DNA of 64,000 bases from Schleiferiaceae bacterium (GTDB taxonomy: Bacteria > Bacteroidota > Bacteroidia > Flavobacteriales > Schleiferiaceae): NCBI GenBank assembly GCA_963715655.1, contig OY970262.1:2565236-2629235 (forward strand), in the 5' to 3' direction. Under the pieces are notes generated by a model that saw nothing but the letters and a program-made list of their open reading frames with translations, did not search any database and was not told where the DNA came from. Below are positions 1,888 to 33,763 of the stretch, piece by piece (position 1 is the first letter of the stretch; each line of letters opens with the position of its first letter). The position numbers and the translations under genes were made by a program.

Positions 1888-2118
1888 TTTGCTAACCTAA
1901 TTTATTCACTTAAAAATTTATCAGTAAAACTAGACTATCCACTGCCTCGAGAATAATTCATTATAGAAACTGAGGTATCTGATACCAGATAAATCCTAAT
2001 TTTTATCAGAAACAGATGTAATTACCTAATTAATTTAAGTCAAAGACATCCATAATTGAAGTTTGTAAAGAATTTTTCTATATTTTCGATTAAAATTAAT
2101 CTAAATAAAAATCTGTTT

Positions 2119-5100: not shown

Positions 5101-6606
5101 TGGACGACAATTAATTCTCTTTCATTACCTCCAACTACGGGCATTAAAAAATTTCAAGGATCTAATACTGGTGATAAAGAAAATTTAGCTGGAAATCAGT
5201 TTGACGCTACTGTCGTTAATGATATTGATGTTAATTTATCCCGAAATAATGTAATTTATGTTCATCATAATGAAACTTACCTAAGTAATCCTCAAAACTT
5301 AAAACCCTCAATTAGCAGACTTATAACTAGTTATGGATTTGACTTAGAGTTTAACGGATCTTGTCCTTCTATTGGCAGTACGGTATTAAACAAAACTGAA
5401 TTGGATGGGATTATTGAAGATAGAAACGCTCTAATAGCCTCATCTAAAGGGTTTTTTGATGAAAATGTCGACTTTGGAAATCATATCAATTTATTGGAAG
5501 CAATAGGCTTTTATGAATCGATAGTATTATACGGAGAGGAAGATTTCCCTGACCCTGTTTTTAATGATGATGGTGATCAATTTGCAAGCTTATATAATAA
5601 TATTTTAGGTAATGCACCTTGGATGTCTGACGAGGCTGCCGCTGCGCTAATTATGCAATTGGGTTTTTCTGATGTTATGTTAAACAACATATTGTTGGCA
5701 CACCCACATGTTTTGAGAAATCCTAAAATTATGGACCTCTTAGAGCTATACCGTGATGGCTTTCTTGCTTATATTGATGGAATTAATAATGCAAGGGCGA
5801 ATAATTATACAGATTATGAAAATAAAATGATGTTATTATCAAATTACTCTACCGACAAATTTAAAGCAGTAGAAGAAATGGCCTCATTATTGTTTTTTGA
5901 AGATATCGGCAATGGTCTTTCTGATTTAGATGAACTTATTAGCTTTTATTCTGCTTACGATGAACCTATTTATCAATACAGAAAAGCGACATTAGAACTA
6001 GTTACTGGCGATTATAGTAGCGCTCAAAATACTCTTACTAACTTGAGTGTTCAAAATAATTTTGAAGGAGATGATGAAAAGCTGTTTAATGATTTTAGTG
6101 AATTATTAGCAATTGCGTCAAATGCCAATGGTAATGTAGCAAATTATACTCCCACAGCGAGTGAGGAAATATTTTTAGCGCGGATTGCTGAGGAGCGAGA
6201 CCACCCTTTAACCGGTTTTGCTTATAGTTTTTCACTAACTAAAAAAATGGCGACAGCGACATTGCACGATGAAATACCTAATGATAGATATGATCCCGTC
6301 TATGATTATAACGTAACTTATAATAATAAAAAGAATATAGTTGAAGAGAAAGCGTTAGTCAATCAACAATTGATAAGTTCTTTCTATGTTTATCCCAACC
6401 CAAGTAGCTCTTATTTTAATGTTGTTTCGACAGATATATTGGAAGGGGAAGCAGTGTTATATGATGTGCGGGGAGCTAAATTAAGAACAGTAGTATGCAA
6501 GAATGGCTTAGCTATTTTGCCTTTAACCTCCTTACCATCTGGCATATATGTAATAAAACTTAGTAACAGAATACAGGTGCAAACTCAAAAAGTAATCATT
6601 GATTAA
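2119..6606 (+). CDS. Very large secreted protein with right-handed beta-helix (PbH1-like) repeats and a T9SS C-terminal sorting domain
   Basis: The start is taken at the internal Met (MKKSKFLIVIVLFNCLLSSIWAQ, a signal peptide); the tracked ORF begins at 2056. Repeated NNTF/NxxF beta-helix-like motifs are present. The C-terminus (YPNPSSSYFNVVSTDILEGEAVLYDVRGAKL ... GIYVIKL) matches the Por/T9SS CTD. Confidence 0.8.
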   Translation: MKKSKFLIVIVLFNCLLSSIWAQNAPGVQWTRFDWPRIEPTTNLPQSREKSGEDWWYDHENVFINGQHTGYIAGGFSEGLNRDVNANTYKSLQDELYTCGDRVTPTCTDFEVIGRTTDCTKSLMFEYELNGNMKWCRIYYDGEFTDVQQTSDGGFIAGGYTRNSHVNGNPNAFSNGQLPNQTRLLYNPINSSSNQFLTKNPNVAWNTGSSRVGIVKTDSEGKIQWMHNYGPLEIIGGVSNSIELTTMKAKWVSIVEINSDFWVVAGYEYRTSIGGPVIFGSFLLKLDSQGYVKEKMLLAPQIITVGSAFISLKDVKKGPGSNTLYVAGSFHEENVIPKSYVAKIDITGTPNILWENLFSAQTVRPDPVNPSNTPVYRNSIIHDIEVRGNGNILVPAIVNCYSGDCFSSNNSTNKAELEIHEITSGGSRSVLYNLGEVNAYDLKAGITNTSDGGFAVVSSKGQYDSNGNLILPAPNDPLILSLLPPNTPNCHEDYKAWMSDVFVAKFSSSNSLEWQKTYDSHPNERQSYPYDLKKQECVYEITEDQATGDLVISGNTSHNFDDAYLLKLTGCQNDLNSEPITSVGAAGDEIIISNNTTWNSNKIIRGLVRVQNILIIDGATIQFADKGQSGQESGILIEPGAKLIVRNGATLTSIAGCESSTWSGIKVASNNFIFQSNNNSGQLELDGTINRVTIENADNAIFMGDPYNISANYWSSFGGIVHANGVDFKNNLRDAAFNSFGSTNTNIYYTQYDSYFKNCKFTKTEKYKAGLKSGGSVTIWACHGIDFENCVWDFTGEDYDEQSVQAAIYTVDASFNVTGNVINETASSRFINCNYGIYSFKSWDFPSRVVINNTLFDNNKKGAFLYGASGYRIQNNTFKIPSLPKDEYDLINAYGVYNRSKSSIQFFNNNTFEGIGTGGFNAGVIVSQSYSLPNVIEQNTFKDLYMANESNMDNRSNDQALGVSGLTGLEYHCNYFDNNDINIYVHHQPYPGNSWTTINSLSLPPTTGIKKFQGSNTGDKENLAGNQFDATVVNDIDVNLSRNNVIYVHHNETYLSNPQNLKPSISRLITSYGFDLEFNGSCPSIGSTVLNKTELDGIIEDRNALIASSKGFFDENVDFGNHINLLEAIGFYESIVLYGEEDFPDPVFNDDGDQFASLYNNILGNAPWMSDEAAAALIMQLGFSDVMLNNILLAHPHVLRNPKIMDLLELYRDGFLAYIDGINNARANNYTDYENKMMLLSNYSTDKFKAVEEMASLLFFEDIGNGLSDLDELISFYSAYDEPIYQYRKATLELVTGDYSSAQNTLTNLSVQNNFEGDDEKLFNDFSELLAIASNANGNVANYTPTASEEIFLARIAEERDHPLTGFAYSFSLTKKMATATLHDEIPNDRYDPVYDYNVTYNNKKNIVEEKALVNQQLISSFYVYPNPSSSYFNVVSTDILEGEAVLYDVRGAKLRTVVCKNGLAILPLTSLPSGIYVIKLSNRIQVQTQKVIID

Positions 6607-8188
6607 TTTCTCCATTAATAGAATTTCAAATAATCTAACAAAAGGGCTGCTTTTAGTAGCTCTTTTGTTATTAAATTCTAACCCTATAATTGCACAAGCT
6701 AAAGGATTTAACAAGCTTTACGGAGAAGTGGTAGTAAGCAGAAGTGTTCAGCCTTTAGGTCACACTTTCTTCACATATAGTGAAATGTCTGATGCTTTAT
6801 GGAATTACATTAAACTAATCAAGATAGATGCGGGTGGGCTGGTAATAGATACTTTTAGTTTTCGATTGGATTCTGTTCATTTAGGCATTAGCAATCACGT
6901 TTCTTTAACTTCAACTTCAGACTCTGGATTAATTTGTTCTTTTTACTATTACAAGCCTTCAGGAATAAAGGTTAACGGATTATTGAAGCTTGATAATAAT
7001 TTAAATGTTAAGTGGCATAATAACGTCTTTGAGGATACAAATAGACGAGGTTTATATCAGATTACCGAAGTATCAGACAAAGGCTTTGTTTGTACTGGTT
7101 TTGCTTATTTACCCGCCAGTAATCGCTATGAAACGTTTTTAGTAAAAACAGATAGTCTAGGTAACAAAGAATGGGAAAAACGCTATGATACTAATGTGCC
7201 TCAATACAGTCAATATGGAATATTTGTGTATGAATGCCCCAATGCAAGTGGTTATTTAATAAGCAACAGGCACGAAATTTTAACCAGTGGTCCTAATAAT
7301 GATGTGAAGCTAATTCGTACCGATATACAAGGCAATGTGCTTTGGGAAAAGCGTTGGGGAAAACCGAATGGTAGCGAAGGGTACGGCAGTGTGGGATATG
7401 TAAATGATAGTACGTTTATACTGTATTATTCTGAATTTACTGATACCATTCTCTATAACTCTACCTCAGGAGTAGTTCTACCTTTTATACGATCAACCCC
7501 TACATTTATTTTAGTTAATGATAAAAATGGAGCTCAGCTCAATCGTAATCAACCTATGAGCCCTACAGTGCAGATGGTGTCTACTAATTCATATTTTCAA
7601 AATGGAAAATTGTATGGGGCGGGTTACTTTTTTAGTTTATTTGGATCTATGCTTTTAGAGGGTGGAGGTTATCAAGGGTTTATTATTAGCGTGGATGAAA
7701 ACTTAAATTTTAATTGGTATAGACATTACAATCCTAGAGGAGCCTTAGCAATTCCTGATGATGATAGTTTTTTAATAGATATTAAACCAACGTTGGATGG
7801 CGGCATTGTAGGGGCAGGTTATTCTTTCAAATCAGATACGGCAGGTACAGGTAGGTTTGGTTTTCATGGATGGATGTTTAAAACAGATAGTATTGGATGC
7901 CTAGAAAGTACTTGCGGAGGGGATATACATTTAAAAGAAGATTTAGTTGATGAAGGAAACGGTATTCAGGTTTATCCAAACCCGAGTAGCTCTTTCTTTA
8001 ATGTTTTGTCTACTGATATTTTGGAAGGGGAGGCGATGCTTTATGATATGCGTGGAGCAGCTTTAAGTTCAGCACCTGTAAAGGACGGTAAGGCGCGACT
8101 AATCGTTGGCAATTTGCCAAAAGGAATTTATGTTATACGCGTTTTTTCCAAGTATCGTTCATTCAGTAAGCAGGTAGAGATTGATTAA
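6599..8188 (+). CDS. T9SS-secreted protein, paralog copy A (inverted duplicate of 48357-49943)
   Basis: TTG start followed by a signal peptide (KGLLLVALLLLNSNPIIAQA). The C-terminal T9SS CTD reads VYPNPSSSFFNVLSTDILEGEAMLYDMRGAAL ... GIYVIRV. The first ~270 aa and last ~130 aa are near-identical to the protein encoded at 48357-49943. Confidence 0.8.
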   Translation: MINFSINRISNNLTKGLLLVALLLLNSNPIIAQAKGFNKLYGEVVVSRSVQPLGHTFFTYSEMSDALWNYIKLIKIDAGGLVIDTFSFRLDSVHLGISNHVSLTSTSDSGLICSFYYYKPSGIKVNGLLKLDNNLNVKWHNNVFEDTNRRGLYQITEVSDKGFVCTGFAYLPASNRYETFLVKTDSLGNKEWEKRYDTNVPQYSQYGIFVYECPNASGYLISNRHEILTSGPNNDVKLIRTDIQGNVLWEKRWGKPNGSEGYGSVGYVNDSTFILYYSEFTDTILYNSTSGVVLPFIRSTPTFILVNDKNGAQLNRNQPMSPTVQMVSTNSYFQNGKLYGAGYFFSLFGSMLLEGGGYQGFIISVDENLNFNWYRHYNPRGALAIPDDDSFLIDIKPTLDGGIVGAGYSFKSDTAGTGRFGFHGWMFKTDSIGCLESTCGGDIHLKEDLVDEGNGIQVYPNPSSSFFNVLSTDILEGEAMLYDMRGAALSSAPVKDGKARLIVGNLPKGIYVIRVFSKYRSFSKQVEID

Positions 8189-8233: not shown

Positions 8234-8485
8234 CTATAACTTGTGTAAAGGATGTATATTAATGAACAGAGAAAGAATGCCACTTACTACCTTTTGGTAA
8301 GTGGAATTAGGGTGAACTTCATGAGGTCTTCGAGAGAGTTCTCTAAGACCTCCATAACCTTCATTTTCAAATCGAGCTATGATTTTATAAGCCGTTGGCC
8401 TAGAAATTTCAAAGCTCCGGCAGAGTTCTGTAATGATGTAATTTCCCGTTCTCCATTCGCAGATAAATTCAATTTTTTGTTCCAT
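8234..8485 (-). pseudogene. Transposase N-terminal HTH fragment (IS481/IS3-like), truncated
   Basis: 83 aa, MEQKIEFICEWRTGNYIITELCRSFEISRPTAYKIIARFENEGYGGLRELSRRPH, resembles the N-terminal HTH of a DDE transposase. No catalytic domain follows. Confidence 0.45.
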
Positions 8486-8832
8486 AATCGTTGATTCTTT
8501 CCAAGGTACGCTAATCTGAATTTTGATTCAAATTGCAAGCTGAAAAGTGTAAACGATGTTTATATAACTATGTAAAGGATGTTTATATATCGTACCCTCC
8601 AAAAGAAAAACACAAACTCTGGGGATCAGAAAAGATGCACAAACTGTTGTATAAAATTCCCCACATTAGCCCATCCGAAATTGATAAAGAGAAGATATCA
8701 ATTTCCACCAGAGCTAATTAATTTCTACAGCTAGCGATAAAATTTAAAAATCCTCATATACAATAATTTACGATTTGGTAATTTTACCGTTTGTCGCAAT
8801 TCAAAAAAGAAAAGAAAAACTGAAATATATAT

Positions 8833-11106
8833 ATGTCATTAATAGACAAAGGACTTGAGCATGGGCACATCAAGTTTGATGAAGAAGAAAAATACATCAT
8901 CTATGTAGCTCCAGGCAAACGATACCGCTATACTGATCCCGAAGAACAAGTAAGAACTGAATCTTACTTATCCTTCATTTTCGAATATGGTTACAATCCT
9001 AAGCGCATGAGTCTTGAAGTAACTGTACCTAGAAGAACCCCTAGCGATTTAGCCGACATTGTCATTTTTGAAGATGATGATAAACTCACGCCCTACATAG
9101 TTGTAGAATGTAAAAAGCAAAAGATTTCAGAAGCAGAGTTCAACCAAGCCATTGAGCAAGGTTTCGGAAACGCTGTTTCGCTCAACGCACCTTTCATGCA
9201 GATTACATCAGGCATTAAAACAAATGCCTATGATGTCAAAAACTTTCCTCCACTCGAAAGGGTAAAGAACCTTATTGCAGATATTCCCCGATTTGGTCAA
9301 TCGGGTATTACCAAAGCAAAGTTTTACAAAGGCGCCATTGATGAAGACGGCAATCCTGCTAAAGACATTAAAGTTGTAGAGCAAAGCGACCTAACGAGAG
9401 TTTTTGAGCAAGCGCACCAAGCCCTTTGGGCAGGTGGAAAGCGGAATCCTTCCGAAGCATTTGATGAATTGGATAAACTCATTTTCTGTAAGATTTGGGA
9501 TGAACGTAAAGACCGCAAGCCAGGTCAGCCTTATGCCTTTCAAGAGTTTACAGGCGAACATCCGAACGAATTGCTTGAGAGAGTACAAGCCATTTACAGC
9601 GAAGGAAAAGAGAAAGACCCAGAAGTATTCAAAGAACCAATTCGCTTATCAGCTTCTGAACTTAAAACCATCGTGGGTTATTTATCAGAACTCAACCTCC
9701 ACGATACCGACCTTGACAGCAAAGGCCGAGCATTTGAAACTTTCTTAGGTTCATTCTTTCGTGGTGATTTTGGACAGTACTTTACGCCTCGAGAAGTGGT
9801 AGACTTTATTGTAAAAGTACTGCCCATTAATAACGATAGTTTAGTGCTTGATTCTTCTTGTGGAAGCGGTGGTTTCTTATTGTACGCCTTAGACAAGGTG
9901 AGAAAAAGAGCCGACCAGATGGCCGAAGAAGGCTATTTCAAAAAAGGCTCTACCAAGCACCGCGACTATTGGCACGATTTCGCAGAGCATAACCTCTACG
10001 GTATTGAAATTTCTGAAAGCATTGCCCGTACTGCCAAAATTAATATGATTATTCATGATGATGGCCACACCAATGTAATTGCTGTGGATGGCCTTAATCC
10101 TATTGAAGAAATTGCTCCAGTACCCAACGAAACCGAAAGAGAGAAAGAATGGCGTGAAAAGCTCAATGCCATTTCTATTCAGAAAGTTTCAGGAAACAAA
10201 GGATTTAAAGAAAACAACTTCGATTTCATCATCACCAATCCACCGTTTGGCTCTAGCATCAAACAAACCGAACAAGCCTATCTCAAAAACTACGGCTTGG
10301 GTATTAAAGATGTCAATTGGGTTGACCAACGATTAAAATCCAATTTCAAATTAGGAACACGCACCAGTCAAAGCACTGAAGTGCTTTTTATTGAGCAATG
10401 CCACCGTTTTTTAAAACCAGGCGGTGTGTTAGCAGTGGTTATTCCTGATGGTATTTTGACCAACTCAAGCTCGCAGTATGTGAGAGATTGGATTGAAGAA
10501 CACTACCGCATCATTTCTGTGGTTTCACTACCTCAAACAGCCTTCTCTGCCAATGGTGCAGGAGTTAAAAGCTCAGTTCTCTTCTTAATGAAGTTGGATG
10601 CCAAGCAAACCAAGAAAGTTCAAAACACCAAAGAGAAAATCCAAGATGATTTATTCTTTCAACCCCAATACGAAGCGGAGATTAAGCGGCTTGATAAAGA
10701 GAAAAAACGCATCATTAAAGAGCATGAAGGCTTTGACTACACCAGTATCAATTGGGAATTAGAAGACAATCTAAAAGCCTTAAATGGTGCATCTGCACCT
10801 GAGCAATATGACAAAGCCGCTCGCAAGCTCGCTGAGAAAAGCGAAGAATTTAAAGCATGGAAGTCTGACATTGGTCAACTCTACAATGAGCAGATCAATG
10901 AAGTAAAAGAAAATTTGCAAGACGAGTACCTCAAGCGCATTGGCGAAGAGCTGATAGACTATCCTATCTTAATGTTAATTGCTGAAAATATCGGTTATGA
11001 TACGGTTGGTCGTAAAACAGGGATCAATGAACTTGAGATAATTGCGCCAGAAATAGAAAGGTTTATTACTGACATTAAAACAGGGCAAGACCCTTTTTTC
11101 GTCTAA
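8833..11106 (+). CDS. Restriction-modification enzyme subunit: N-terminal HsdR_N-like PD-(D/E)xK nuclease domain fused to a gamma-class N6-adenine DNA methyltransferase
   Basis: The N-terminal region (DLADIVIFEDDDKLTPYIVVECKKQK) fits the D...ExK motif of the HsdR N-terminal nuclease family. A SAM-binding region (LDSSCGSGGFLLYA) and the catalytic NPPF motif (FDFIITNPPFGS) are present. 757 aa is larger than a canonical HsdM. Confidence 0.8.
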   Translation: MSLIDKGLEHGHIKFDEEEKYIIYVAPGKRYRYTDPEEQVRTESYLSFIFEYGYNPKRMSLEVTVPRRTPSDLADIVIFEDDDKLTPYIVVECKKQKISEAEFNQAIEQGFGNAVSLNAPFMQITSGIKTNAYDVKNFPPLERVKNLIADIPRFGQSGITKAKFYKGAIDEDGNPAKDIKVVEQSDLTRVFEQAHQALWAGGKRNPSEAFDELDKLIFCKIWDERKDRKPGQPYAFQEFTGEHPNELLERVQAIYSEGKEKDPEVFKEPIRLSASELKTIVGYLSELNLHDTDLDSKGRAFETFLGSFFRGDFGQYFTPREVVDFIVKVLPINNDSLVLDSSCGSGGFLLYALDKVRKRADQMAEEGYFKKGSTKHRDYWHDFAEHNLYGIEISESIARTAKINMIIHDDGHTNVIAVDGLNPIEEIAPVPNETEREKEWREKLNAISIQKVSGNKGFKENNFDFIITNPPFGSSIKQTEQAYLKNYGLGIKDVNWVDQRLKSNFKLGTRTSQSTEVLFIEQCHRFLKPGGVLAVVIPDGILTNSSSQYVRDWIEEHYRIISVVSLPQTAFSANGAGVKSSVLFLMKLDAKQTKKVQNTKEKIQDDLFFQPQYEAEIKRLDKEKKRIIKEHEGFDYTSINWELEDNLKALNGASAPEQYDKAARKLAEKSEEFKAWKSDIGQLYNEQINEVKENLQDEYLKRIGEELIDYPILMLIAENIGYDTVGRKTGINELEIIAPEIERFITDIKTGQDPFFV

Positions 11107-11138
11107 GCCCCGATTTAGATGAAGACAGGTTCTTCATT

Positions 11139-12584
11139 TTGAATCGGGGCGAAATCGAATTTAGATTAGACCCACTCTATTTTAGAGCACTAAAGCAAAT
11201 TGAAACTGATATTGTTGAAAAGGCAAAATATCCAGTTCACCCCGTAAGACAAGTTTGTGCTATAAAACGCGGAAAGTTTACGCATAGACCGAGAAATGAT
11301 CCAAAATTGTATGATGGCGAATATCCATTTATTCAGACAGGAGACATTGTTCGTTCAGCGACAACAGGAAATGAAATAACCTACAAGCAAACTCTTAATG
11401 AGTTGGGTAGAATGACCAGTAGATTGGCCTATCCTCCTCAGTTATTAATGACCATTGCTGCCAATATTGGGGTTACAGCCATTCTTGATTACGCATGTTG
11501 CTATCCTGATAGTATTGTCGCTATTGACCCAAAGAATCAGGGATTAAACACTTCAATAGAATACTTAGATGTTTATTTTACTTTGATTCAACCTTATGTT
11601 GAACAGCTTGCCCCTTTTGCAGCACAACGAAATTTAAACAATCAGCAACTCGGAGATATTCCTCTAATTCTGCCCGATAATACCATTCAGCAAAAAGCAA
11701 TTGATAGTTACAAAAAGGCCGTTGAAGACAAGAAAGCCAAAGAAAACCAAGCCCAAGAGCTACTCGCTTCTATTGATGACTACTTACTTACAGAGTTAAG
11801 TATCGTCCTTCCGCCTGAGCCAGAAAATGCAATTGAGAATAGGAAGTTTAGGACTAATTTTTCAAGTGTCACAGGTAACCGCTTCGACCCAAAAAGATAC
11901 AGCACAAGAACGGAGCAACTCTATGATTCAATTCACAATTCTATTTTTCCATTAAGAAGCTTAAAATCCCTTCTTATTCACACCGCATCAGGCCAATGGG
12001 GTGATGAGCCTCATGAGTCTTTTAATGAAAAGCTTTACAAGCAATGCCTTGTTATCAGATCTACAGAATTTGACAATCGATTCAATTTAAAACTTGATAA
12101 TAGCAGGGCAAAATATCGCCTTATAACTAAAACGAAACTTGATAAACTTGATCTGCAACCTTATGACATCCTAGTTGAAAAATCTGGTGGCAGTCCAGAT
12201 CAACCAGTTGGTAGAGCAGCAATTCTTCTACCTGAAATATTTGAAAACAATACGATTTGCTACAGCAACTTCATTCACAAATTCCGTGCTGATCAGTCTA
12301 TTATAGATCCTGAATACTTGTTCGCTTATCTAAAGGTGATTCATAATATCAAGTTGACAGATACTATGCAAAGTCAAACCAATGGAATTAGAAACTTGAT
12401 TATGAGAGAATATTGGAATCAAGAGATTCCTATTCCATCACCCGAAAAACAAAAAGAAATAGCTACTCAGTTTTTCAACCTTAAAAATGAAGCACAAGAA
12501 TTATTCAAAAATGCTGAGTTAGACTTTCAGCAAGCAAAAAAAGAAATTGAGCACTTAATCTTAAATCCTGCAAACAATGACTAA
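11139..12584 (+). CDS. hsdS: Restriction-modification specificity (S) subunit, HsdS-like with two target-recognition domains
   Basis: Two variable TRD-like halves are separated by conserved coiled-coil spacer repeats (LPDNTIQQKAIDSYKKAVEDKKAKENQAQELL and IPIPSPEKQKEIATQFFNLKNEAQELF). TTG start 33 nt after the upstream stop. Confidence 0.8.
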   Translation: MNRGEIEFRLDPLYFRALKQIETDIVEKAKYPVHPVRQVCAIKRGKFTHRPRNDPKLYDGEYPFIQTGDIVRSATTGNEITYKQTLNELGRMTSRLAYPPQLLMTIAANIGVTAILDYACCYPDSIVAIDPKNQGLNTSIEYLDVYFTLIQPYVEQLAPFAAQRNLNNQQLGDIPLILPDNTIQQKAIDSYKKAVEDKKAKENQAQELLASIDDYLLTELSIVLPPEPENAIENRKFRTNFSSVTGNRFDPKRYSTRTEQLYDSIHNSIFPLRSLKSLLIHTASGQWGDEPHESFNEKLYKQCLVIRSTEFDNRFNLKLDNSRAKYRLITKTKLDKLDLQPYDILVEKSGGSPDQPVGRAAILLPEIFENNTICYSNFIHKFRADQSIIDPEYLFAYLKVIHNIKLTDTMQSQTNGIRNLIMREYWNQEIPIPSPEKQKEIATQFFNLKNEAQELFKNAELDFQQAKKEIEHLILNPANND

Positions 12585-13011
12585 AACGATAATAGCCCTT
12601 TGGGGCACAGCCAATATCGGTAAATCTATGACACTAGCTCGCCTTGGCAGACAGTTACAAGCTAATGGTGCTACCACAAATGCTAACATTACAGGTGGAG
12701 ATTATCGAGCCATATTTCAGTATCAAAACAAAACTATTGGCCTTCAAACCTATGGTGATACAGAGCATTTGGTAAACCAAGGATTAACTGAGTTTCAAAA
12801 TCAGCAATGTGACATAATTGCCATTGCTTCTAAATCTTATGGAGCTACCGTTGATACTATTGGAGCATTTGCAGGTCAAAATGGCTATCGCATTATTTGG
12901 TCAAGTCCCTATGAAGTGAGAGATGGCTCCATCACTACTGATACAATTAAGAACTATGCTGCAAGCCACTTGCTTAGAATGGTTGATGATGTAATTGCAG
13001 GTATTCTATAG
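12577..13011 (+). CDS. Small P-loop NTPase/kinase-like protein (144 aa), uncharacterised
   Basis: Walker A-like motif WGTANIGKSMTL near the N-terminus and a hydrophobic-D stretch (CDIIAIAS) resembling Walker B. The ATG overlaps the hsdS stop by 8 nt (AATGACTAA), suggesting translational coupling. Confidence 0.55.
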   Translation: MTKTIIALWGTANIGKSMTLARLGRQLQANGATTNANITGGDYRAIFQYQNKTIGLQTYGDTEHLVNQGLTEFQNQQCDIIAIASKSYGATVDTIGAFAGQNGYRIIWSSPYEVRDGSITTDTIKNYAASHLLRMVDDVIAGIL

Positions 13012-13013
13012 AA

Positions 13014-13856
13014 TTGAATATAATGGGAGAGAAAACTATCACATACCAAAGGCAACTCATAGGCGTAGAAATAAAGCTTGGTTTCTTATACGTTCCGGCA
13101 CAAGCCAGAGACTTGTTGCCCAATGAAAACGGCAAAGTGCAAGTGCTACTCGAAGGAGAAAACAAACCCAAAGCAAAGAGCTACAATGCAGACTATAACC
13201 GCATTTTTGGCCTTACTCCTTTCTTCAAAAAGCACAAACTAGAAAAGGGCAATATTCTCACCGTACAGGTCAGCAATGATCTTATCAAGGTAGAGCTTGC
13301 CAAAACCACCATCATAGAAGATCAGGAAGAAAATGAGCAAGCAGATGTCATTGATATTTCAGGTTTATCATCCCAAGCCAAAGGAAACATTGCCGAAGAC
13401 CGAGTAAAAGAAATCATCTTACTCAATAGTCAAGGCTTGCTCAATGTCTATCGTCCCGTTATCGATACCAGGGGCATTGATATGATTGTATTGAAAGAAG
13501 GTTTGTTTCATTCCATTTACCTACAAGTAAAATCACGTTTTCAGGTAAAAAGCAATGGTCAATTAATACTCACCATCAGCAAGAATACTTTTAAACCACA
13601 TCACGCTCATTATTTAGTAGGCATTAGTTACGAACCTGATGTTGCAGAAATAGGTGAACATATACTCTTTATGCCTTCCAAAAAGGTAATAGAAATGGCC
13701 ACCATAGTAAAGAACAAAGGCAAAGAATATTACCGCATCAATGTTTCTTACAACAGCGCCAAAAGTGGTAAATACAAAAAGTACTTTATGAGCAAGCAAG
13801 ACTTTGTAGAAAGCCTACTCGAAAAATTTGAAGCCATGAGCGAAATGATAAAATAA
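13014..13856 (+). CDS. Putative restriction-type nuclease: N-terminal B3/EcoRII-N-like DNA-binding pseudobarrel plus C-terminal PD-(D/E)xK-like core
   Basis: The N-terminus (IGVEIKLGFLYVPAQARDLLPNENGKVQVLL ... YNRIFGLTPFFKKHKLEKGNILTVQV) has the typical B3/EcoRII-N pattern. The C-terminal half (VYRPVIDTRGIDMIVLKEG ... IYLQVKS) resembles D..(E/Q)xK nuclease strands. The start lies 3 nt after the previous stop. Confidence 0.45.
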   Translation: MNIMGEKTITYQRQLIGVEIKLGFLYVPAQARDLLPNENGKVQVLLEGENKPKAKSYNADYNRIFGLTPFFKKHKLEKGNILTVQVSNDLIKVELAKTTIIEDQEENEQADVIDISGLSSQAKGNIAEDRVKEIILLNSQGLLNVYRPVIDTRGIDMIVLKEGLFHSIYLQVKSRFQVKSNGQLILTISKNTFKPHHAHYLVGISYEPDVAEIGEHILFMPSKKVIEMATIVKNKGKEYYRINVSYNSAKSGKYKKYFMSKQDFVESLLEKFEAMSEMIK

Positions 13857-13867
13857 CCCACTTACCT

Positions 13868-15388
13868 ATGAGATTAGAAGGACTATTACAAGAATCATTA
13901 GGCGGCTTTGTCTGCATCCGTGGGTATGCCCCGCTTGGTGATTTAGCACGTATTTCAGAGTCAGACCCGGACTACCAAAGAAACCTGATTGAAGAACAAC
14001 GAGAAGAGATTGTTCACTTTTTAGAAAACAAAGAATACCTCTTCTTTCCAGAAGTAATTCTATCCTACACGCTCAAGTATGATTTTGCAACGGGTGTGTC
14101 AGGTATCAATCCATTAAGAGACATTCTTGACCGCAAGAAATTCGCTTCTAATGTTGATGGTATTCGCTTTAACTCTACAAAGTCAGGAGTTCATAAGGTA
14201 ATAGTTGACATCACAGAATCTTTCCTAAAATCAGATACACCCTTCTTTCGCATAGATGGCAACCACCGTTTGAGTGCTTCACAGGAGAAAACGGCCTTCA
14301 ACGAGTACGTTACTCCTTTTTGCTTGATTCTATTTCCTGAAGGAAATCAATCAGAAGAATACAAAAGGGTCATATTTCATAACATCAATTCAAAATCAGT
14401 TCCACTTACATCAGAAGAAAATCTAAGGCTCATTCTTGATGAAGAAAACATATTCTCTGATGAAAAGCTCAAAACCCAACCCAGTTTTGGTGTGGAGTTT
14501 TTCTTAGCACGTAAGTTGAAAGACAGCATCGATCTCCATGTTTTAAAACACATAGCTAATTCCTTTAAACAGGTAAAACACAATGGGGATGAAATAGAAA
14601 ACAAACGAACCGTTCTACTCAAACTCTTTAAGCTTCTTCTTGATAAAGAAGCTGTTGAAGGCAATGATGAAGCCATCAACATGGTGCATTCGGCTATAGT
14701 GGCAGTAAACGAACTGTATGGCAAGTATGCCAAGCTAGCCGCTTGTCATTCTCATGCCTTGTTCATTGCTTTTGTCTATTACGAGCTACACCTTGAAAAG
14801 GGGGATTATCGTGCATCATTCAAAAATTGGGTGCTGTACAACCACATGTACAATGTAGATGACATTTCACCATCCAATTTGGTTAGTGTTTACGATACCA
14901 TACTCGAATCTCGCAAGCGACACATCTTCGTTTCTATGCAATTCTCAGATGATACAAAGAATCATTACACAGCCATTAAGAATGCCATAGATCAAGTAAA
15001 CCAAAAGCATAAACTTGACCTAGAACTAAAGGAAATTAGAATAGATGAAATGAACAAAGGGTACTCCTACACCATTTCAGACGAAATACTACAGCTAATA
15101 AACAACACAGGCTTGCTTATTGCAGACCTCACGCATGGCAACAGAAATGTTTACCATGAGTTAGGCTTCCTTATGGGGCTTAATGTAGGGAGAGACTTAA
15201 AACACAACAACTTCATACTCTTAATGAAAAATGACCCCAACGGAAAAACAGATGCTGAAGTAGGGTTTAACATTAGAGACTTTCAGCAAATCAGATTCAA
15301 TGAAGCAATAGAAATAACCGCACGTTTAGTTGAGTCATTGGAGGTCTATTACAAATTAAAACCAGCAGGGAATGAAGTAGAAAACTAA
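13868..15388 (+). CDS. Two-domain protein: N-terminal ParB/Srx-fold DGQHR/DUF262-like domain and C-terminal NDT/SLOG/TIR-like Rossmannoid domain
   Basis: The N-terminus contains FFRIDGNHRLSAS (compare the DGQHR motif of DndB and DGQQR of DUF262/GmrSD). The C-terminus has HIFVSMQFSDD ... LLIADLTHGNRNVYHELGFLMG, which resembles the D-x-T...FE-x-GY signature of nucleoside 2-deoxyribosyltransferase-like/TIR-like domains. It is the last gene of the operon, 12 nt after the previous stop. Confidence 0.5.
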   Translation: MRLEGLLQESLGGFVCIRGYAPLGDLARISESDPDYQRNLIEEQREEIVHFLENKEYLFFPEVILSYTLKYDFATGVSGINPLRDILDRKKFASNVDGIRFNSTKSGVHKVIVDITESFLKSDTPFFRIDGNHRLSASQEKTAFNEYVTPFCLILFPEGNQSEEYKRVIFHNINSKSVPLTSEENLRLILDEENIFSDEKLKTQPSFGVEFFLARKLKDSIDLHVLKHIANSFKQVKHNGDEIENKRTVLLKLFKLLLDKEAVEGNDEAINMVHSAIVAVNELYGKYAKLAACHSHALFIAFVYYELHLEKGDYRASFKNWVLYNHMYNVDDISPSNLVSVYDTILESRKRHIFVSMQFSDDTKNHYTAIKNAIDQVNQKHKLDLELKEIRIDEMNKGYSYTISDEILQLINNTGLLIADLTHGNRNVYHELGFLMGLNVGRDLKHNNFILLMKNDPNGKTDAEVGFNIRDFQQIRFNEAIEITARLVESLEVYYKLKPAGNEVEN

Positions 15389-15451
15389 AAACAGCATACA
15401 ATAAAAGTAGCCCTTGCACAACCTTATAATTCTTGAGATCAGCGATTTGAA

Positions 15452-15477
15452 CGAAGCCCTTTACGGGCTTTTTTTGT
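15452..15477 (+). terminator. Rho-independent terminator closing the 8833-15388 operon
   Basis: Hairpin aagccc-tttac-gggctt followed by a run of T residues, 64 nt after the stop of 13868-15388. Confidence 0.6.
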
Positions 15478-15522: not shown

Positions 15523-16398
15523 CTAAAGTAGACTATTTTCTTTATTAGTTTCATTAATCAAAATATCCCTTGGTGCAGTGGAGCGTAGCGGAACGGAACC
15601 AAGGGATATTTTTCGGTTTTTGTTTCTATAGGCCACAGGGCTTATGCCACCCAGCGCATCGTGTGGTCGTTCATGGTTGTAATCTTCTACCCAAGATTCG
15701 GTCACTTCTCTTACTTGATCTATTGAACTAAAGAGATAAGCATCTAAAATATGCCTGCGATAGGTTTTATTAAAACGCTCTATTAGCGCATTTTGAGTAG
15801 GCTTACCGGGCTGTATATATTTAAACTCAATACCGTGCATCACGCTCCATTGAGTCGTTAATTTAGCTATAAATTCTGGACCATTATCCATACGTAGTTT
15901 TTGCGGCTTTCCGTGTTTGTTTATCAAGTGGTTTAATACCCAAATTACTCTGCTACTTTTTAAAGAATAATCTGTTTCTATAAACAGTACTTCTCGATTG
16001 TAGTCATCTATTACATTAAAGCTTCGGAACTTCCTTCCATGCTCTAAAGCATCGCTCATAAAATCAATACTCCACGTATGCGTAAAGCACTCGGGTATTA
16101 TTATGGGTTCTTTTACCCGCGCTGGTAAACGCTTTTTTACTTTCCTTCTTAATGGCAAGCCCATCTGCTTATATATCCTATGTAGCCGCTTGTGATTGAT
16201 TAATTCCTCCTTATTACGAAGACGGTAATAACTCTTCCAAAAGCCTTCGCGTGGATGTTTTATACTCAACTGCTTTAATAATAGCTCTACGCTGCTATCA
16301 TCCTTTATTGATTGATAAGCAATACTACTGCGACTAGTCTTTAATACGCGACACGCCTTGCTTATGCCGCGCGGATAAGTGCTTTTTATGCTTTCCAT
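15523..16398 (-). CDS. IS3-family transposase OrfB (DDE integrase core)
   Basis: 291 aa with an rve-like integrase core (WSIDFMSD ... DNGPEF ... [10 protein letters not shown]). Expressed by -1 frameshifting from orfA. Confidence 0.9.
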
Positions 16399-16421
16399 TA
16401 TTTCTCTCTTTTGGCAAGGCT

Positions 16422-16688
16422 TTAAAGCTTTTTTTCAATAATGTGCTTGGCGATATCTAACTCTAAAGCTAAATCGGTGTACATGCGTTTTAGCTTCGCA
16501 TTTTCTTCTTCTAGCTTCTTTATGCGCTTTAGCTCACTAGCTTCCATGCCGCCATAGCGTTGTCGCCATTTATAAAATGTTGCTTTGCTTACGCCATGCT
16601 CTCGGCTAATCGTAGCTACATCTTTGCCTTGTTCAAACTCCTTGAGAATACTGGCAATCTGGTTTGGGGTGAATTTGCTCTTTTTCAT
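16422..16688 (-). CDS. IS3-family transposase OrfA (HTH plus leucine zipper)
   Basis: 88 aa, [47 protein letters not shown] with a coiled-coil tail. The slippery heptamer A_AAA_AAG sits just before its stop. Confidence 0.9.
16428..16434 (-). promoter_or_regulatory. Programmed -1 ribosomal frameshift heptamer A_AAA_AAG of the IS3 element
   Basis: The plus strand reads ctttttt, which is AAAAAAG on the coding (minus) strand, located at the codons ...GAA AAA AAG CTT TAA at the end of orfA. Confidence 0.6.
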
Positions 16689-16789: not shown

Positions 16790-18900
16790 GTGTTGTTATT
16801 ATATTGCAAGGGTGTGGTCAAATAATGTGATTGGTGTGTTTGTCAAAGGTTGGGAGGTATGGTTTATATGGGTAGAAAGATATATTGATAATAAAAGGAA
16901 TGGTTTAAGGTGAATTTCAAACGCAATTCGTGTTTTTGATTGCTGAAAGTATCCATGTGTTAATTGTTAAAAGGTAATCACACTGAACCTAAAACTTACA
17001 AGTAATATTGTAAGTAGGTGTTATCATGGTATTGTAGGGGTGTGTTTCACGGGTTTGATAGGTGTGGTTTAGGTGTGGTAGAAGGGTGGTTAACTGGTTT
17101 TATAGGTGTGTTTAACAAGCGGCATAGGTGTGGTTTAGGTGTGGCAGGATGATGATTATCTGATTGTATAGGTGTGTTTAACCAATAGGGGTAGGGTCTT
17201 GACATGTCTAGTAGGGGTGCAACATGTGCTTTCCAATATTTGAATTTACTAGGTGCAAGGTTTGTCCTATGGTTAAAACCTGCTTTCATTAATGAAAAAT
17301 GATTTAGAGCCATTGTGCGGGTTTGTGGAATCTGCAATTACTATTTTTAGCTGTTACACTACGTTTTAATTGGTTTTTGTGAAACTAATATGAGATGCAG
17401 GAGTCTCATGGCCATGTGTTTGTCAATTGATGAGTTCATTCATCAAGTATCTCAGTTATGTTTAGGTACGGCAGGGGGGGGTGTTTCACGGGTTATATAG
17501 GTGTGTTTAGGTGTGGCAAAAAAGTGGTTAACTGGTTTCATAGGTGTGTTCCACGGGTTGTATAGGTGTGTTTTAGGTGCGGTAGAAGGGTGGTATAACT
17601 TGCCTTATAGGTGTGTTTTAAAGGCGGCATAGGTGTGGTTTAGGTGTGGCAGCATGATGGTTATCCGTTTGCATAGGTGTGTTTAACCAATAGCGGTAAG
17701 GTCTTGACATGTCCAGAAGGGGTGCAAAATGTGCTTTCCAATATCTGAATATACTAGGAGCAAAGTTTGTCCTATGGTTAACACCTAATTTCATTAATAG
17801 AAATGATTTAGAGCCATTGTGCGGGTTTTTAGAATCAGCAATTACGATATTTTAACTGTTACAATATGCTTTAATTGGTTTTTGTAAAACTAATATGAGA
17901 TGTAGGAGTATCATGGCCATGTCTTTGTCAATTGATGAGTTCATTCATCCAGAGTCTCGGGTATATTTAGGTACGGCAGGGGTGTATTTCACGAGTAGTA
18001 TAGGTGTGTTTTAGGTGTGGTTAAAAAGTGGTTGACCGGTTGCATTGGTGTGTTCCACGGGTTGTATAAGTATGTTTTAAGTGTGGTAGAAAGGTGGTTA
18101 ACTGGTTTTACAGGTGTGTTTCACGTGTTGTATAGGTGTGTTTTAGGTGTGGTAGAAAGGTGGTTAACTGGCCTTATAGGGGTGTTTCACAAGCGCATAG
18201 GTGTGGTTTAGGTGTGGCAGCATGATGGTTATCCGTTTGCCTAGGTGTGTTTAACCAATAGCGGTAAGGTCTTGACATGTCCAGGAGGGGTGCAACATAT
18301 GCTTTCCAATATTTGAATTTACTAGGTGCAAGGTTTGTCCTATGGTTAACACCTGATTTTATTAATGAAAAATGATTTAGAGCCATTGTGCGGGTTTATG
18401 GTATTGGCTATAAGGGTTTTAAATATGGTATCTCAGTTGGTTTCAGTGAGACTTATAGGAGTGAGATAGTGTATTATGACTGTTATCTCGATTGAAAAGT
18501 CTCTTAAAGTTTCGCAAGGTGTTTAGGTATGGCAGGGTGTGTTTCACGGGTCACATGGGTGTGTTTTAAGTGTGGCAGAAAGTTGGTTAACCAGTTTGAT
18601 AGGTGTGTCTATTTTATTGTGGTAGGATTTTGCGATGATTTCTAGGGTGCAAAGAGAGTGTTCCAATAAATATATCCAATCGTTAACCTCTGGTTTTATT
18701 AATTAAAGAAGATATAAAGCCATTGTACGGGTTTGTTGAGTCTTATTTTACGGATTGGAGTTGTTAAATGCGGAACTACATCTTACTTGGTCTTAGTGAG
18801 ACTTATAGGGGTCAGATAGTGTTTTAAGGTTTTTTATTTTATCGTCTGGAGGGTGTTTCTTGAATTGCCATTGGGTGTGTTTAGGTGTGGCTGGTATGAT
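16790..18900. repeat. Array of ~500-570-bp complex tandem repeats (3 full plus about 2 degenerate copies), each containing 11-13-bp GT-rich iterons
   Basis: The anchor motif cttgacatgtc recurs at ~17199, ~17704 and ~18272. Each unit contains multiple (a)taggtgtg(g/t)ttt iterons, some spaced by 11 bp (ataggtgtggtttaggtgtggcag), a ttgaca...tatttg promoter-like segment, and a palindrome ttgatgagttcattcatcaa. Degenerate copies extend to ~18900. Confidence 0.8.
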
Positions 18901-21040: not shown

Positions 21041-21958
21041 TTAGTGATTAAGATATTTTGGATTTATATAGACTTCAGGATCGTGGCATAAAAAACAAGC
21101 TCTAGACACATCTTTCCCAGAGGGATCGGCTTCTAAACTGAAATTTTGTTTTAGAAAAATGGAAACTGCTTGAAAGTACTTCTCATGGGTTACCTCTTTT
21201 GTCAACTCAATTGGAATAATCCATTTAAGACCATTTCCTGAAGGAGATTTAAACAGTAGTTCGGTTTCAAATTCCTCAATCCCTAACAGTGTAGCACGTG
21301 TTTCAGATACGTTTGGTAAGTCATCAAAATCTATAGTTAAAAGGTTTGAATGGTGGATTAAACCAGCATTAGATCGTGTACTAAATAAACCGGAGAAAGT
21401 AACATAGTCCAACCCCGTTGATTTAAATTTAGAGGCTTGATTTTTCAAACTAAATGCTCTGAGCTTTCTAGTTACATCAGGGTATTTATTTCCTTTAATA
21501 AGCTCATACACCTGAAGGGTGTTAAGGGTGCTTTTTGGGGTGGTATTATGGATGGGAGCGTTATAGTAACTAAACAGCGGCATTGCTTCTCCCTTTAGTG
21601 TAGGTGGTGATAAGTTGGGTGCTACCTCTAGTATTTCAGTAAGAGGAATTCTTAAGTTCATTTCATCGTTAAGAATATTAGATAATGCATTTTCGTTATC
21701 ACCATAGTGCAGTTTAGCAAAATCAAAACAGTTACCTGCTGCAATGGAATTATCCGTATCGGAGTGCATTGCCACATTATCTACTATTTTAATTTTCAGA
21801 GATTTTTTACCATAATTAAATGGATTTCTTGTAGGCTCACAGATGGTGCCATTTAACTTTAGGACTGTTTCACACGGGTAGTACTTCCTGAGTACATGTC
21901 CATAAATATTTAACCCGTAATATGTCTGTTTTAAAATAGCGGTATTAATTTGGTTCAT
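21041..21958 (-). CDS. Primase-polymerase (AEP/BT4734-like Prim-Pol) domain protein
   Basis: The C-terminal region (LTIDFDDLPNV ... FKSPSGNGLKWIIPI ... SGKDVSRACFLCHDPEV) resembles the acidic and SxxGxGxH motifs of bifunctional primase-polymerase domains. Co-oriented and adjacent to the DUF3987 gene. Confidence 0.5.
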   Translation of the reverse strand: MNQINTAILKQTYYGLNIYGHVLRKYYPCETVLKLNGTICEPTRNPFNYGKKSLKIKIVDNVAMHSDTDNSIAAGNCFDFAKLHYGDNENALSNILNDEMNLRIPLTEILEVAPNLSPPTLKGEAMPLFSYYNAPIHNTTPKSTLNTLQVYELIKGNKYPDVTRKLRAFSLKNQASKFKSTGLDYVTFSGLFSTRSNAGLIHHSNLLTIDFDDLPNVSETRATLLGIEEFETELLFKSPSGNGLKWIIPIELTKEVTHEKYFQAVSIFLKQNFSLEADPSGKDVSRACFLCHDPEVYINPKYLNH

Positions 21959-30380: not shown

Positions 30381-30483
30381 TTTTTTGCTAGCTGTTAATC
30401 TGTTTTTTATTTGGAGGTTGCGATATTTTTAAATGACTTTCGAGTAGAGATGCATTGCAAATGAAATTAATACTAAACTTTAG

Positions 30484-30690
30484 GTTTTACAACCATGCTT
30501 CGATACACCTCGTTCCTCGGCACTCAGCATGACATCCGTTTGTCTATTAAAACCAATAAAAGCATTTTAAACATATGCACTTCATTTTAAAATTTTTAGT
30601 TTAAAACATTTTAGGGGTAAAAACCATGCTTCGATACACCTCGTACCTCGGCACTCAGCATGACATTCGTATATTAAAACCAATAAAAAA
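30484..30690. repeat. Two ~70-bp direct repeats in the flotillin-to-giant-ATPase intergenic region
   Basis: aaccatgcttcgatacacctcgt(t/a)cctcggcactcagcatgacat.cgt...ttaaaaccaataaaa occurs at ~30486 and ~30617. Each copy contains an internal catgct/agcatg stem. Confidence 0.6.
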
Positions 30691-33089: not shown

Positions 33090-33110
33090 TTTTTAATTTG
33101 GTTTAATTAG

Positions 33111-33761: not shown

Positions 33762-33763
33762 GG

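Follow-up and report, generated by a model that had tools for sequence, protein, structure and literature searches.

A BsaXI-like Type IIB restriction-modification enzyme and a candidate accessory protein form a recurring three-gene cassette

Restriction-modification (R-M) loci collect accessory genes, but a functional connection to the R-M enzyme has been defined for few of them, the classic example being PrrC with EcoprrI. A block of five genes (G1, S, g3, g4 and G5) from a Schleiferiaceae bacterium (GCA_963715655.1, contig OY970262.1) poses the question again: which of the genes that follow a nuclease-methyltransferase and a specificity subunit belong to the R-M enzyme, and which merely travel with it? 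We addressed this within a 64,000-nucleotide stretch of DNA (the window) and across related loci. An earlier note on this DNA had read the last three genes as a nucleotide- or DNA-modifying immunity module riding on the R-M genes.

The note's picture of five packed, co-directional genes in a mobile, defense-type context holds (Table 1). In gene order the junctions are 32 nt, an 8-nt overlap, 2 nt and 11 nt, each within 1 nt of the values it had given (33 nt, overlapping, 3 nt and 12 nt), and placing the start of g4 at the ATG at 13023, as its homologs favor, widens the g3-g4 gap to ~11 nt. The strong terminator that it had placed at 15452-15477 is the best site between 7500 and 17000, a hairpin at 15453-15471 with a 7-bp stem (4 G-C pairs) followed by TTTTTGTTGTG; within the operon the plus strand has just one other candidate (11996-12014), and a weak one. 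Because the scan returned 8 terminator-like sites where shuffling predicts 7.5, it is by itself no proof of transcription, and a sigma-70 promoter scan is uninformative in a Bacteroidota genome. The IS3 element behind the terminator was recovered from its Pfam domains, and the transposase fragment upstream corresponds to an IS481-like helix-turn-helix remnant. The whole block is most likely carried on an integrative element.

Table 1. Coordinates of the gene block and its flanking elements in the window.
Feature	Position	Strand	Basis
IS481-like HTH fragment, 83 aa, upstream of the block	8234-8485		
G1	8833..11106	+	757 aa ORF
S	11139..12584	+	481 aa ORF
g3	12577..13011	+	144 aa ORF
g4	13014..13856	+	280 aa ORF
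G5	13868..15388	+	506 aa ORF
Intrinsic-terminator-like hairpin and T run, end of the block	15453..15477	+	terminator scan, sequence reading
IS3-family insertion sequence, directly downstream of the terminator	15523..16688	-	HTH_Tnp_1, rve/rve_3 (Pfam)
IS3 orfB	15523-16398	-	Pfam rve/rve_3
IS3 orfA	16422-16688	-	Pfam HTH_Tnp_1

Domain scans confirm that the first two genes form an R-M core without HsdR. G1 combines an N-terminal PD-(D/E)xK nuclease (E37/E38, D75, E92-x-K94; Pfam HSDR_N_2 at 36-137), a gamma-class N6-adenine methyltransferase (motif I GSGGF, motif IV NPPFG; Pfam N6_Mtase at 295-598) and a K/E-rich, helical C-terminal region with the final motif DYPILMxIAENIGYD. Conservation of D75, E92-x-K94, GSGGF and NPPFG is at least 95% among 63 homologs. 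S contains two target-recognition domains (TRDs), seen as two stretches of Pfam Methylase_S. Of 80 loci each from genomes and metagenomes, 74 and 67, respectively, have an S gene after G1. PADLOC assigned G1 to MTase_I (PDLC03030, 537 bits) and S to Specificity_I (PDLC03143, 258 bits).

The note had remarked on the absence of HsdR. Neither HsdR nor ResIII or other helicase domains were found among the scanned ORFs of at least 180 aa in the window, and neither HsdR nor any helicase gene is conserved across 160 related loci, so that a classical Type I R-M system was rejected. The missing subunit is nevertheless no anomaly, because G1 is a full-length homolog of RM.BsaXI (G1 profile positions 9-696 aligned to residues 15-769 of 8w0p, E=1.6e-64), a Type IIB enzyme that cuts via its own N-terminal PD-(D/E)xK domain (PMC11997821). 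G1 shares the domain order of RM.BsaXI as a single polypeptide and, like BsaXI and BcgI, is paired with an S subunit of Type I-like build, encoded separately and containing two TRDs. Judged by this homology, G1-S is a BsaXI-like Type IIB R-M enzyme that does not need HsdR. G1 would act as nuclease and N6-adenine methylase and S as specificity subunit, probably in an (RM)2S complex that protects its bipartite site by methylation and cleaves DNA lacking this mark. At 757 aa, G1 is shorter than BsaXI (916 aa), and its two-sided cleavage is a prediction from homology. Many loci carry G1-S unaccompanied or fused into a single protein of ~1,195 aa, indicating that the pair is autonomous. Current annotation of G1-type genes, which names them Type I methyltransferases or simply N-6 DNA methylases, is corrected here to BsaXI-like Type IIB RM subunits.

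G1-S is also reminiscent of MADS, in which MAD2 joins a nuclease-like N-terminus to an N6_Mtase domain, as G1 does, and MAD5 is an S subunit. The NCBIfam MAD2 model (NF047738) matches G1 at 304 bits over positions 5-580 of 654, against a cut-off of 720, and MAD5 matches S at 63 bits against a cut-off of 400, while g3, g4 and G5 match no MAD model in NCBIfam or PADLOC. With both matches far below the equivalog cut-offs and the other MADS genes absent, membership of MADS was rejected.

Across genomes, the recurring unit is three genes (G1, S and G5), not five. G1 and S lie directly upstream of G5 in 58 of 62 genomes; of the four exceptions, three have a G1 locus that is degraded or altered. The S stop and G5 start codons overlap in 43 of 71 cassettes, by 4 nt in 41 of them, which argues for coupled expression; a further 19 have a spacing of at most 20 nt. 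No other gene cluster recurs at G5 loci, the runner-up appearing in 8 of 80. The dependence runs one way, from G5 to G1-S and not the reverse: G5 accompanies just 22 of 54 close G1-S pairs, a frequency that does not form one unbiased sample with those at G5 loci, because genome loci were selected via G5 and metagenome loci via G1. Pairs without G5 stand alone or beside typical R-M cargo such as Bro-N, RhuM, ORF6N, YhcG, PDDEXK_3, DUF262, AAA_15/21 or KAP genes. BsaXI itself is described as RM and S only (PMC11997821, PMC9159934); here G5 is added in about 40% of close G1-S pairs. We found no description of the triad in the openly readable literature.

Could G5 instead be an independent Type IV-like or abortive-infection gene that inserts behind this R-M family, functionally unlinked to G1-S? 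Many unrelated cargo genes do occupy the same position in G1-S loci, the G1 tree implies at least 13 gains or losses of G5, and fusions of ParB/DUF262 domains to effectors, such as GmrSD, are reported to function alone (PMC4619093). However, typical cargo (g4, RhuM, DUF1016) joins many R-M types and G5 essentially one, and the 4-nt overlap speaks for expression coupled to that of S, which makes an unlinked hitchhiker decidedly unlikely in our view. Carriers of G5 group together on the G1 tree (13 changes versus ~27 after shuffling), and G1 and G5 distances correlate with a Pearson r of 0.72 but a Spearman coefficient of only 0.33. A column-wise comparison of G1 from loci with and without G5 revealed no discriminating region except a C-terminal G...FF tail, a difference confounded by phylogeny. 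The genomic distribution of G5 points to a need for one particular R-M architecture.

The same neighborhoods dissolve the downstream trio proposed in the note: G5 does co-occur with the methyltransferase and S genes and in that sense rides on R-M, but g3 and g4 are each detected in just 1 to 3 of 80 G5-selected loci. Both are independent of the cassette and occur in unrelated defense loci or alone. A single immunity system of all five genes, integrated and modifying nucleotides or DNA, could be argued from the tight junctions and the single terminator in the window, from the closest relative (L001), which keeps the identical five-gene order, and from a second locus (L085) that also has the g3-g4 pair. 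In L085, however, the pair follows G5 instead of preceding it as in the window. Elsewhere g4 stands by itself amid housekeeping genes, belongs to a classical HsdMSR operon or is part of an Eco57I/helicase cluster, and the contexts of g3 include RT-g3-McrBC, MmeI-like-g3, NYN-g3, G1-S-g3 followed by an MTase/S fusion, and G1-S-G5-g3-g4. We therefore regard a five-gene system as highly improbable, and we see no link that would join a kinase, a site-specific nuclease and a glycosidase in the single nucleotide-modifying pathway that had been suggested. g3 and g4 would be separate, self-contained defense genes inserted at the S-G5 junction and co-transcribed with the cassette by position only.

g3 is accessory cargo outside the conserved cassette. 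It is a minimal, stand-alone P-loop NTPase whose motifs are Walker A (GTANIGKS), QTxGD, which is invariant, and IASKxYG, and it shows weak similarity to SRP54/FtsY, PilT, AAA_22 and MMR_HSR1. The P-loop named in the note is thus present, but its kinase-like character did not survive: thymidylate kinase matches at an E of about 0.3 and on the P-loop only, and a nucleotide or nucleoside kinase was rejected. Close homologs number only 23, all in Bacteroidota, within a wider family of 1,676 cluster representatives of ~145 aa; no PADLOC model matches g3.

For g4, the proposed B3-like and PD-(D/E)xK-like domains were both recovered: a B3-type DNA-binding pseudobarrel (~8-95) precedes a PD-(D/E)xK core (~118-280) with its acidic and lysine residues in place (E128, D156, Q171-x-K173). 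The protein is confined to Bacteroidota and is probably an autonomous restriction-type endonuclease carried as accessory cargo. It was compared with the B3-domain endonucleases EcoRII, BfiI, NgoAVII and UbaLAI and with PD-(D/E)xK nucleases of the I-Ssp6803I/Hjc type, from which it differs in having no sequence-level family match and a QxK, not ExK, at the third catalytic position. Pfam gave no match, NCBIfam only a sortase match at chance level (E=0.069) and PADLOC a single weak one (PDC-M02A, E=0.0026). A two-domain architecture shared with Eco15I was rejected, as the NhoI and Eco15I_Ntd matches both fall on the nuclease domain.

The ParB/DGQHR-like and NDT/TIR-like parts that the note had named in G5 are supported. 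Its N-terminal domain (~1-190; Q37-R38, FFPE 59-62, RIDGNHRLSA 128-137, FHNIN 170-174) bears the signature motifs of DGQHR, DndB, DpdB and DUF262 proteins (QR, DGQ(H/Q)R, FxxxN), with Q replaced by N (DGNHR); across 27 to 88 sequences, no variation occurs in Q37-R38, D130-G-N-H-R134 or F170-H-N-I-N174. The assignment of this domain rests on sub-threshold HMM matches: TIGR03187 scores 27.5 bits on G5, below its curated cut-off of 58.85, and matches 88 of 88 family members (best E=1e-10), followed by GmrSD_N (32/88), DndB (20/88) and DpdB-type models (9 to 12/88). Fold searches did not recover the domain, the C-terminal domain dominating them. On its motifs, G5 is a divergent DGQHR/ParB-fold relative outside every named subfamily. 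A helical middle domain (~195-345) leads to a probable flavodoxin-like C-terminal domain of the TIR/NDT superfamily (~350-495; ADL 419-421, NxNVYHExG 425-433, invariant E431), whose fold resembles the N-glycosidases MilB, DNPH1 and NDT. A TIR effector model matches 72 of 88 members and Pfam Nuc_deoxyrib_tr 11 of 88, PADLOC reported a weak TIR match only, and a PDB sequence search with G5, g4 and g3 gave nothing usable.

The family comprises more than 1,200 homologs in about ten phyla, with no name and no Pfam or NCBIfam model, and occurs in about 200 of 185,579 species genomes. The cassette is mainly chromosomal, since a plasmid collection yielded a single deleted remnant, from Leisingera, that joins a methylase to the C-terminus of G5, and just 5 of 2.9 million viral contigs carry G5.

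How might G5 act? Proteins of the same fold offer precedents: DpdB, a DGQHR protein, is the ATPase that DpdA needs for DNA base exchange (PMC10164549), and ParB/DUF262 domains occur in fusions with a variety of effector domains and in association with R-M loci (PMC3632139). We consider it probable, though by no means certain, that the locus combines a Type IIB enzyme, an accessory effector that depends on it (G5) and two hitchhikers, g3 and g4. G5 would have been acquired in this lineage as a dedicated accessory protein, co-translated with S, and would act only jointly with the G1-S complex, presumably by physical interaction. By analogy with DpdB, SspE and GmrSD, its DGQHR/ParB-fold domain could be an NTP-dependent DNA-binding switch that governs the TIR/NDT-type N-glycosidase domain. 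The latter may fire once the R-M complex has bound foreign DNA that lacks the modification or has itself been blocked, most likely hydrolyzing NAD+ or nucleotides as an abortive-infection back-up or, alternatively, excising bases from DNA.

In a different proposal, G5 would itself be the restriction effector, a DNA glycosylase or transglycosylase for which G1-S locates unmethylated sites: a DpdB-like ATPase would open the DNA and the NDT-like domain excise or exchange bases, leaving abasic sites that kill the invader, as with R.PabI, or adding a second base modification to host DNA. The DpdB-type matches, the requirement of base exchange for the DpdB ATPase, the N-glycosidase-like fold with its Nuc_deoxyrib_tr matches and the suggestion by Anantharaman et al. 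that NDT domains of conflict systems attack DNA glycosidic bonds (PMC3710099) are all consistent with this. Yet the conserved nuclease triad of G1 predicts cleavage without G5, G1-S frequently lacks G5, no conserved nearby gene could read a second modification, and the TIR effector matches point at least as much to NAD+ chemistry. We hold a glycosylase effector to be unlikely.

Returning to G5 as an accessory effector, we tentatively suggest, at somewhat less than even chances, that G1-S-G5 is an undescribed three-component defense system, in which the Type IIB complex would be a sensor specific for sequence and methylation and the ParB-fold NTPase/N-glycosidase a non-nucleolytic second effector, depleting NAD+ or nucleotides or excising DNA bases. 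Possible triggers are unmethylated sites, short DNA fragments excised by the Type IIB enzyme and phage anti-restriction proteins. A second effector is not obviously needed, because G1 retains an apparently active nuclease.

G5 resembles GmrSD, BrxU, SspE, DndB and DpdB in its N-terminal ParB fold with QR, DGxxR and FxxxN-type motifs, its C-terminal enzymatic domain and its genetic tie to a DNA-modification module, but its C-terminus is TIR/NDT-like rather than HNH/DUF1524, HEPN or PD-(D/E)xK. It further differs from Ssp, Dnd, Dpd and BREX proteins in its Type IIB partner and DGNHR motif, all matches being below family cut-offs. Its layout is like that of PrrC, an R-M-linked abortive-infection effector embedded in and dependent on the EcoprrI M-S operon; to our knowledge the two have no sequence relationship. 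SPARTA TIR-APAZ, Thoeris and the NDT-like effector of Retron-Eco1 are TIR/NDT-like NADases with a flavodoxin-like N-glycosidase domain and a conserved Glu, a layout that the C-terminal domain of G5 would share. The NADase activity of G5 is putative, and we know of no counterpart to its ParB-fold control domain in these systems or in PrrC.

A G5 that acts as a TIR/NDT effector triggered by R-M would reveal how restriction and abortive infection are wired together and provide a new output domain for the ParB/DUF262 sensor class; should the three-component reading be true, this link would be hard-wired over about ten bacterial phyla. The three genes span about 5.3 kb and occur in cultured strains, which makes the cassette directly testable.

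We fetched 80 genome loci from about ten phyla via G5, a protein in which a DGQHR/ParB-fold domain is fused to a TIR/NDT-like domain, and clustered all flanking ORFs. The recurring families were G5 itself (77), the specificity subunit S (74) and the RM subunit G1, a nuclease joined to an N6-adenine methyltransferase (67); the next largest occurred in 8 loci. Where the sequence reaches at least 4.4 kb 5' of G5 (62 loci), G1 and S lie directly before it in 58, the exceptions being a locus with a Mutator transposase in G1's place (L008), a degraded locus (L073), one in which G1 measures 951 aa and S lacks an ORF of its own (L027) and one with a different Eco57I-type methylase (L059). Of 71 cassettes, 43 have an S stop that overlaps the G5 start (by 4 nt in 41), and another 19 have a gap of at most 20 nt. 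The unit conserved across genomes is three genes, G1-S-G5, and G5 is genomically dependent on G1-S and coupled to S where the S stop meets the G5 start. Cultured carriers include Acinetobacter sp. ANC 4470 (L047), Ochrobactrum sp. MYb379 (L038), Methylobacter tundripaludum (L040) and Anaerosolibacter carboniphilus DSM 103526 (L010). We found no description of this triad within searchable papers. It is a new variant of Type IIB restriction-modification (R-M), and G1-S by itself adds a member to the known Type IIB R-M enzymes.

Some loci depart from this arrangement. The order is G1-G5-S in L064, L154, L158, L163 and L165. A search of 72,556 plasmids gave a single match, in Leisingera thetidis (NZ_CP109788.1, 328057-330300; L086), where a gene annotated "N-6 DNA methylase" is a deletion fusion with G5 residues 126-497 encoded in its 3' part, a decayed cassette remnant.

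By Pfam, G1 combines HSDR_N_2 (residues 36-137) with N6_Mtase, and S is a two-TRD Methylase_S protein. Among proteins of solved structure, G1 has its best relative in RM.BsaXI: a profile built from 13 G1 homologues aligns over positions 9-696 of 720 with RM.BsaXI residues 15-769 (E=1.6e-64), a stretch that takes in the nuclease motif as well as the C-terminal element DYPIFMAxAExxGY. Among 63 G1 homologues, conservation reaches at least 95% at E37/E38, D75, E92-x-K94, motif I and NPPFG. At the sequence level, these features identify G1-S as an enzyme of the BsaXI type whose catalytic motifs are conserved. BsaXI itself belongs to Type IIB and acts as (RM)2S; its N-terminal domain carries the canonical PD-(D/E)xK site with which it cuts (PMC11997821). 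The earlier note had pointed out that the window has no HsdR; we detected no helicase or HsdR domain in the larger window ORFs scanned, as expected for a BsaXI-like Type IIB enzyme cutting with its own N-terminal nuclease. The nearest named NCBIfam models to G1 and S are MAD2 and MAD5 of the MADS system, with scores far under the cut-offs, and further MAD proteins are absent at the window locus.

The dependence runs one way. Among 80 metagenome loci fetched via G1 (47-65% identity), 54 have at least 3.2 kb downstream, and G5 is present in 22 of these and absent in 32. Where G5 is missing, G1-S is followed by opposite-strand genes, forms one fused protein of about 1,195 aa, or has other co-directional genes alongside (Bro-N, RhuM, ORF6N, YhcG/DUF1016, PDDEXK_3, GmrSD_N, AAA_15/21 and KAP NTPase), genes of the sort that Type I R-M operons commonly carry. 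In a neighbour-joining tree built from 113 G1 sequences, G5 carriage requires 13 state changes, compared with about 27 (minimum 20) when labels are shuffled, and G1 and G5 pairwise distances are correlated (Pearson 0.72, Spearman 0.33). Thus G1-S is autonomous, and G5 is its accessory, for the most part passed on together with it, repeatedly lost or gained, and essentially never found elsewhere. A less likely rival reading, that G5 is a hitchhiker unrelated to G1-S, could draw on the unrelated cargo that G1-S loci accept and on the repeated gains or losses of G5 on the tree; against it stand the near-exclusive pairing of G5 with G1-S and the S-G5 overlap.

The fused protein, found in the metagenome loci L101, L107 and L114, is a single-chain form of the enzyme that resembles Type IIG. 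A C-terminal G...FF tail of G1 (residues about 751-757; window 11083-11106) occurs in 60-67% of G5-carrying cassettes and aligns to a gap in 26 of 31 G5-lacking ones; it may be the peptide on which G5 docks, in a comparison of carriers with non-carriers that shared ancestry confounds. In Winogradskyella (L084), G1-S-g3 is followed not by G5 but by a 760-aa N6_Mtase + Methylase_S protein (8413-10692), a further methylase of the operon that brings its own specificity part.

The homologues of G5 number more than 1,274 and measure 500-540 aa. All are unnamed, and conservation extends from end to end; the closest is from Roseivirga seohaensis (98% identity). In alignments of 27 and 88 sequences, most residues of its motifs are invariant. 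Family matches are weak throughout: TIGR03187 DGQHR in all 88 members (best E=1e-10), the PADLOC TIR effector in 72, GmrSD_N in 32, DndB in 20, DpdB in 12 (PADLOC) or 9 (NCBIfam), and Nuc_deoxyrib_tr in 11. No curated model in Pfam, PADLOC or NCBIfam names G5, and sequence search found no solved relative. In its AF2 model (pLDDT 83), the C-terminal domain resembles MilB, DNPH1 and TIR domains (Foldseek, E=0.005 to 0.1). Given these matches, we describe G5 by its predicted domains, outside named families: first a divergent DGQHR/ParB-fold domain, then a helical middle, and last a TIR/NDT-superfamily domain in which a Glu is conserved.

We propose that G5 would join, or be controlled by, the (RM)2S complex. 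Its ParB-fold domain could act as an NTP-dependent DNA switch, for which there are precedents: the DpdB ATPase is needed for DNA base exchange (PMC10164549), and ParB/DUF262 domains are fused to effector domains and linked to modification systems (PMC3632139). The C-terminal domain would then carry out N-glycosidase chemistry, directed either at NAD+ or nucleotides, as an abortive-infection back-up, or at DNA, as in the rival reading that makes G5 a glycosylase or modifier of DNA. We rank NAD+ or nucleotide hydrolysis slightly over DNA base excision because TIR models are matched more often and a nuclease is already present in G1.

Features of the window, and G5 motifs in residue numbering
Feature	Position	Strand	Remark
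Tyrosine integrase	44-1102		opens the window
Two T9SS-sorted secreted proteins	2056-8188		
IS481-like HTH fragment	8234-8485		83 aa, upstream of G1
G1	8833-11106	+	757 aa
S	11139-12584	+	481 aa
g3, small P-loop NTPase	12577-13011	+	144 aa
g4, B3 domain + PD-(D/E)xK nuclease	13014-13856	+	280 aa
G5	13868-15388	+	506 aa
Hairpin then T run	15453-15477	+	terminator-like, 3' of G5
IS3 element	15523-16688	-	HTH_Tnp_1 + rve
22-nt repeat arrays in 66/67-nt super-repeats	17039-17182, 17497-17651, 17981-18252		
PriCT_2/DUF3987 primase-helicase gene	19189-21012		
BT4734-like gene	21041-21958		
411-aa ORF	22350-23585		no Pfam match
Solute symporter	from 23979		housekeeping, beyond the element
G5 Q-R	37-38		N-terminal motif
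G5 FFPE	59-62		N-terminal motif
G5 RIDGNHRLSA	128-137		N-terminal motif
G5 FHNIN	170-174		N-terminal motif
G5 ADL	419-421		C-terminal motif
G5 NxNVYHExG	425-433		C-terminal motif

The ORF listing agrees exactly with the positions the earlier note gave for the five plus-strand genes, whose junctions measure, in order, 32 nt, an 8-nt overlap, 2 nt and 11 nt. The sole further plus-strand terminator-like site within the block is weak (11996-12014). Since terminator-like sites are about as frequent as expected from shuffling (8 observed, 7.5 expected), co-transcription of the five genes is likely, though unproven.

Close packing could favor the rival view that the five genes are a single system, with the last three as one trio. 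That trio does not hold up: among the G5-selected loci, g3 was detected in 1 of 80 and g4 in 3 of 80, and both turn up in unrelated settings. The g4 family (about 196 members, Bacteroidota only; closest relative in Roseivirga seohaensis, 94% identity) appears within an HsdM-S-R operon (L081), in a helicase/Eco57I/SMC cluster (L082), by itself in a housekeeping neighbourhood (L175) and in the order G1-S-g4-8xMP-G5 (L176). Its AF2 model has a pLDDT of 84.6, and E128, D156, Q171 and K173 are invariant in the family alignment. For g3 we found only 23 close homologues, within a wider family of P-loop proteins of about 145 aa (1,676 cluster representatives), and its similarities are confined to weak matches to SRP54/FtsY, PilT and AAA folds. 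It adjoins an RT and McrBC (L172), an MmeI-like enzyme (L173) or an NYN gene (L083), and occurs as G1-S-g3-MTase/S fusion (L084) and G1-S-G5-g3-g4 (L085). Because the g3-g4 pair lies 5' of G5 in the window and 3' of it in L085, the two genes are cargo in their own right, and the S-G5 junction serves as a point of insertion in Bacteroidota. Both are uncharacterised proteins of ordinary types.

Upstream of G1, the 347-nt gap after the transposase fragment contains a 62-aa ORF (8533-8721) and, within 8485-8833, a near-duplicate tgtaaa(c/g)gatgtttatata at about 8549-8567 and 8573-8591. Unlike the window, L084 and L085 have an HTH_3 (controller-like) gene directly 5' of G1.

From the integrase at the window start through the IS3 element, the repeats and the PriCT_2/DUF3987 and BT4734-like genes to the symporter, the layout suggests an integrative element of roughly 23 kb (window 44-23600) that carries the cassette as cargo. 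No tRNA gene was found anywhere in the window. The repeat arrays, which sit between IS3 and the primase-helicase gene, may be iterons or an origin of the mobile element; GC skew is unusually strong (0.32-0.48 over about 16.5-19.5 kb, and about 0.4-0.5 at the arrays), and the ORFs called at 17047-17337, 18017-18211 and 18174-18386 are probably artefacts of the repeats. Just outside the element, a co-directional four-gene cluster (25458-34501, minus strand) opens with a 1,640-aa DUF3686 ("ATPase involved in DNA repair")/DUF7902/AAA_5 protein, followed by a 725-aa ORF without a Pfam match and ORFs of 216 and 245 aa, and could be a further defence or DNA-repair module.
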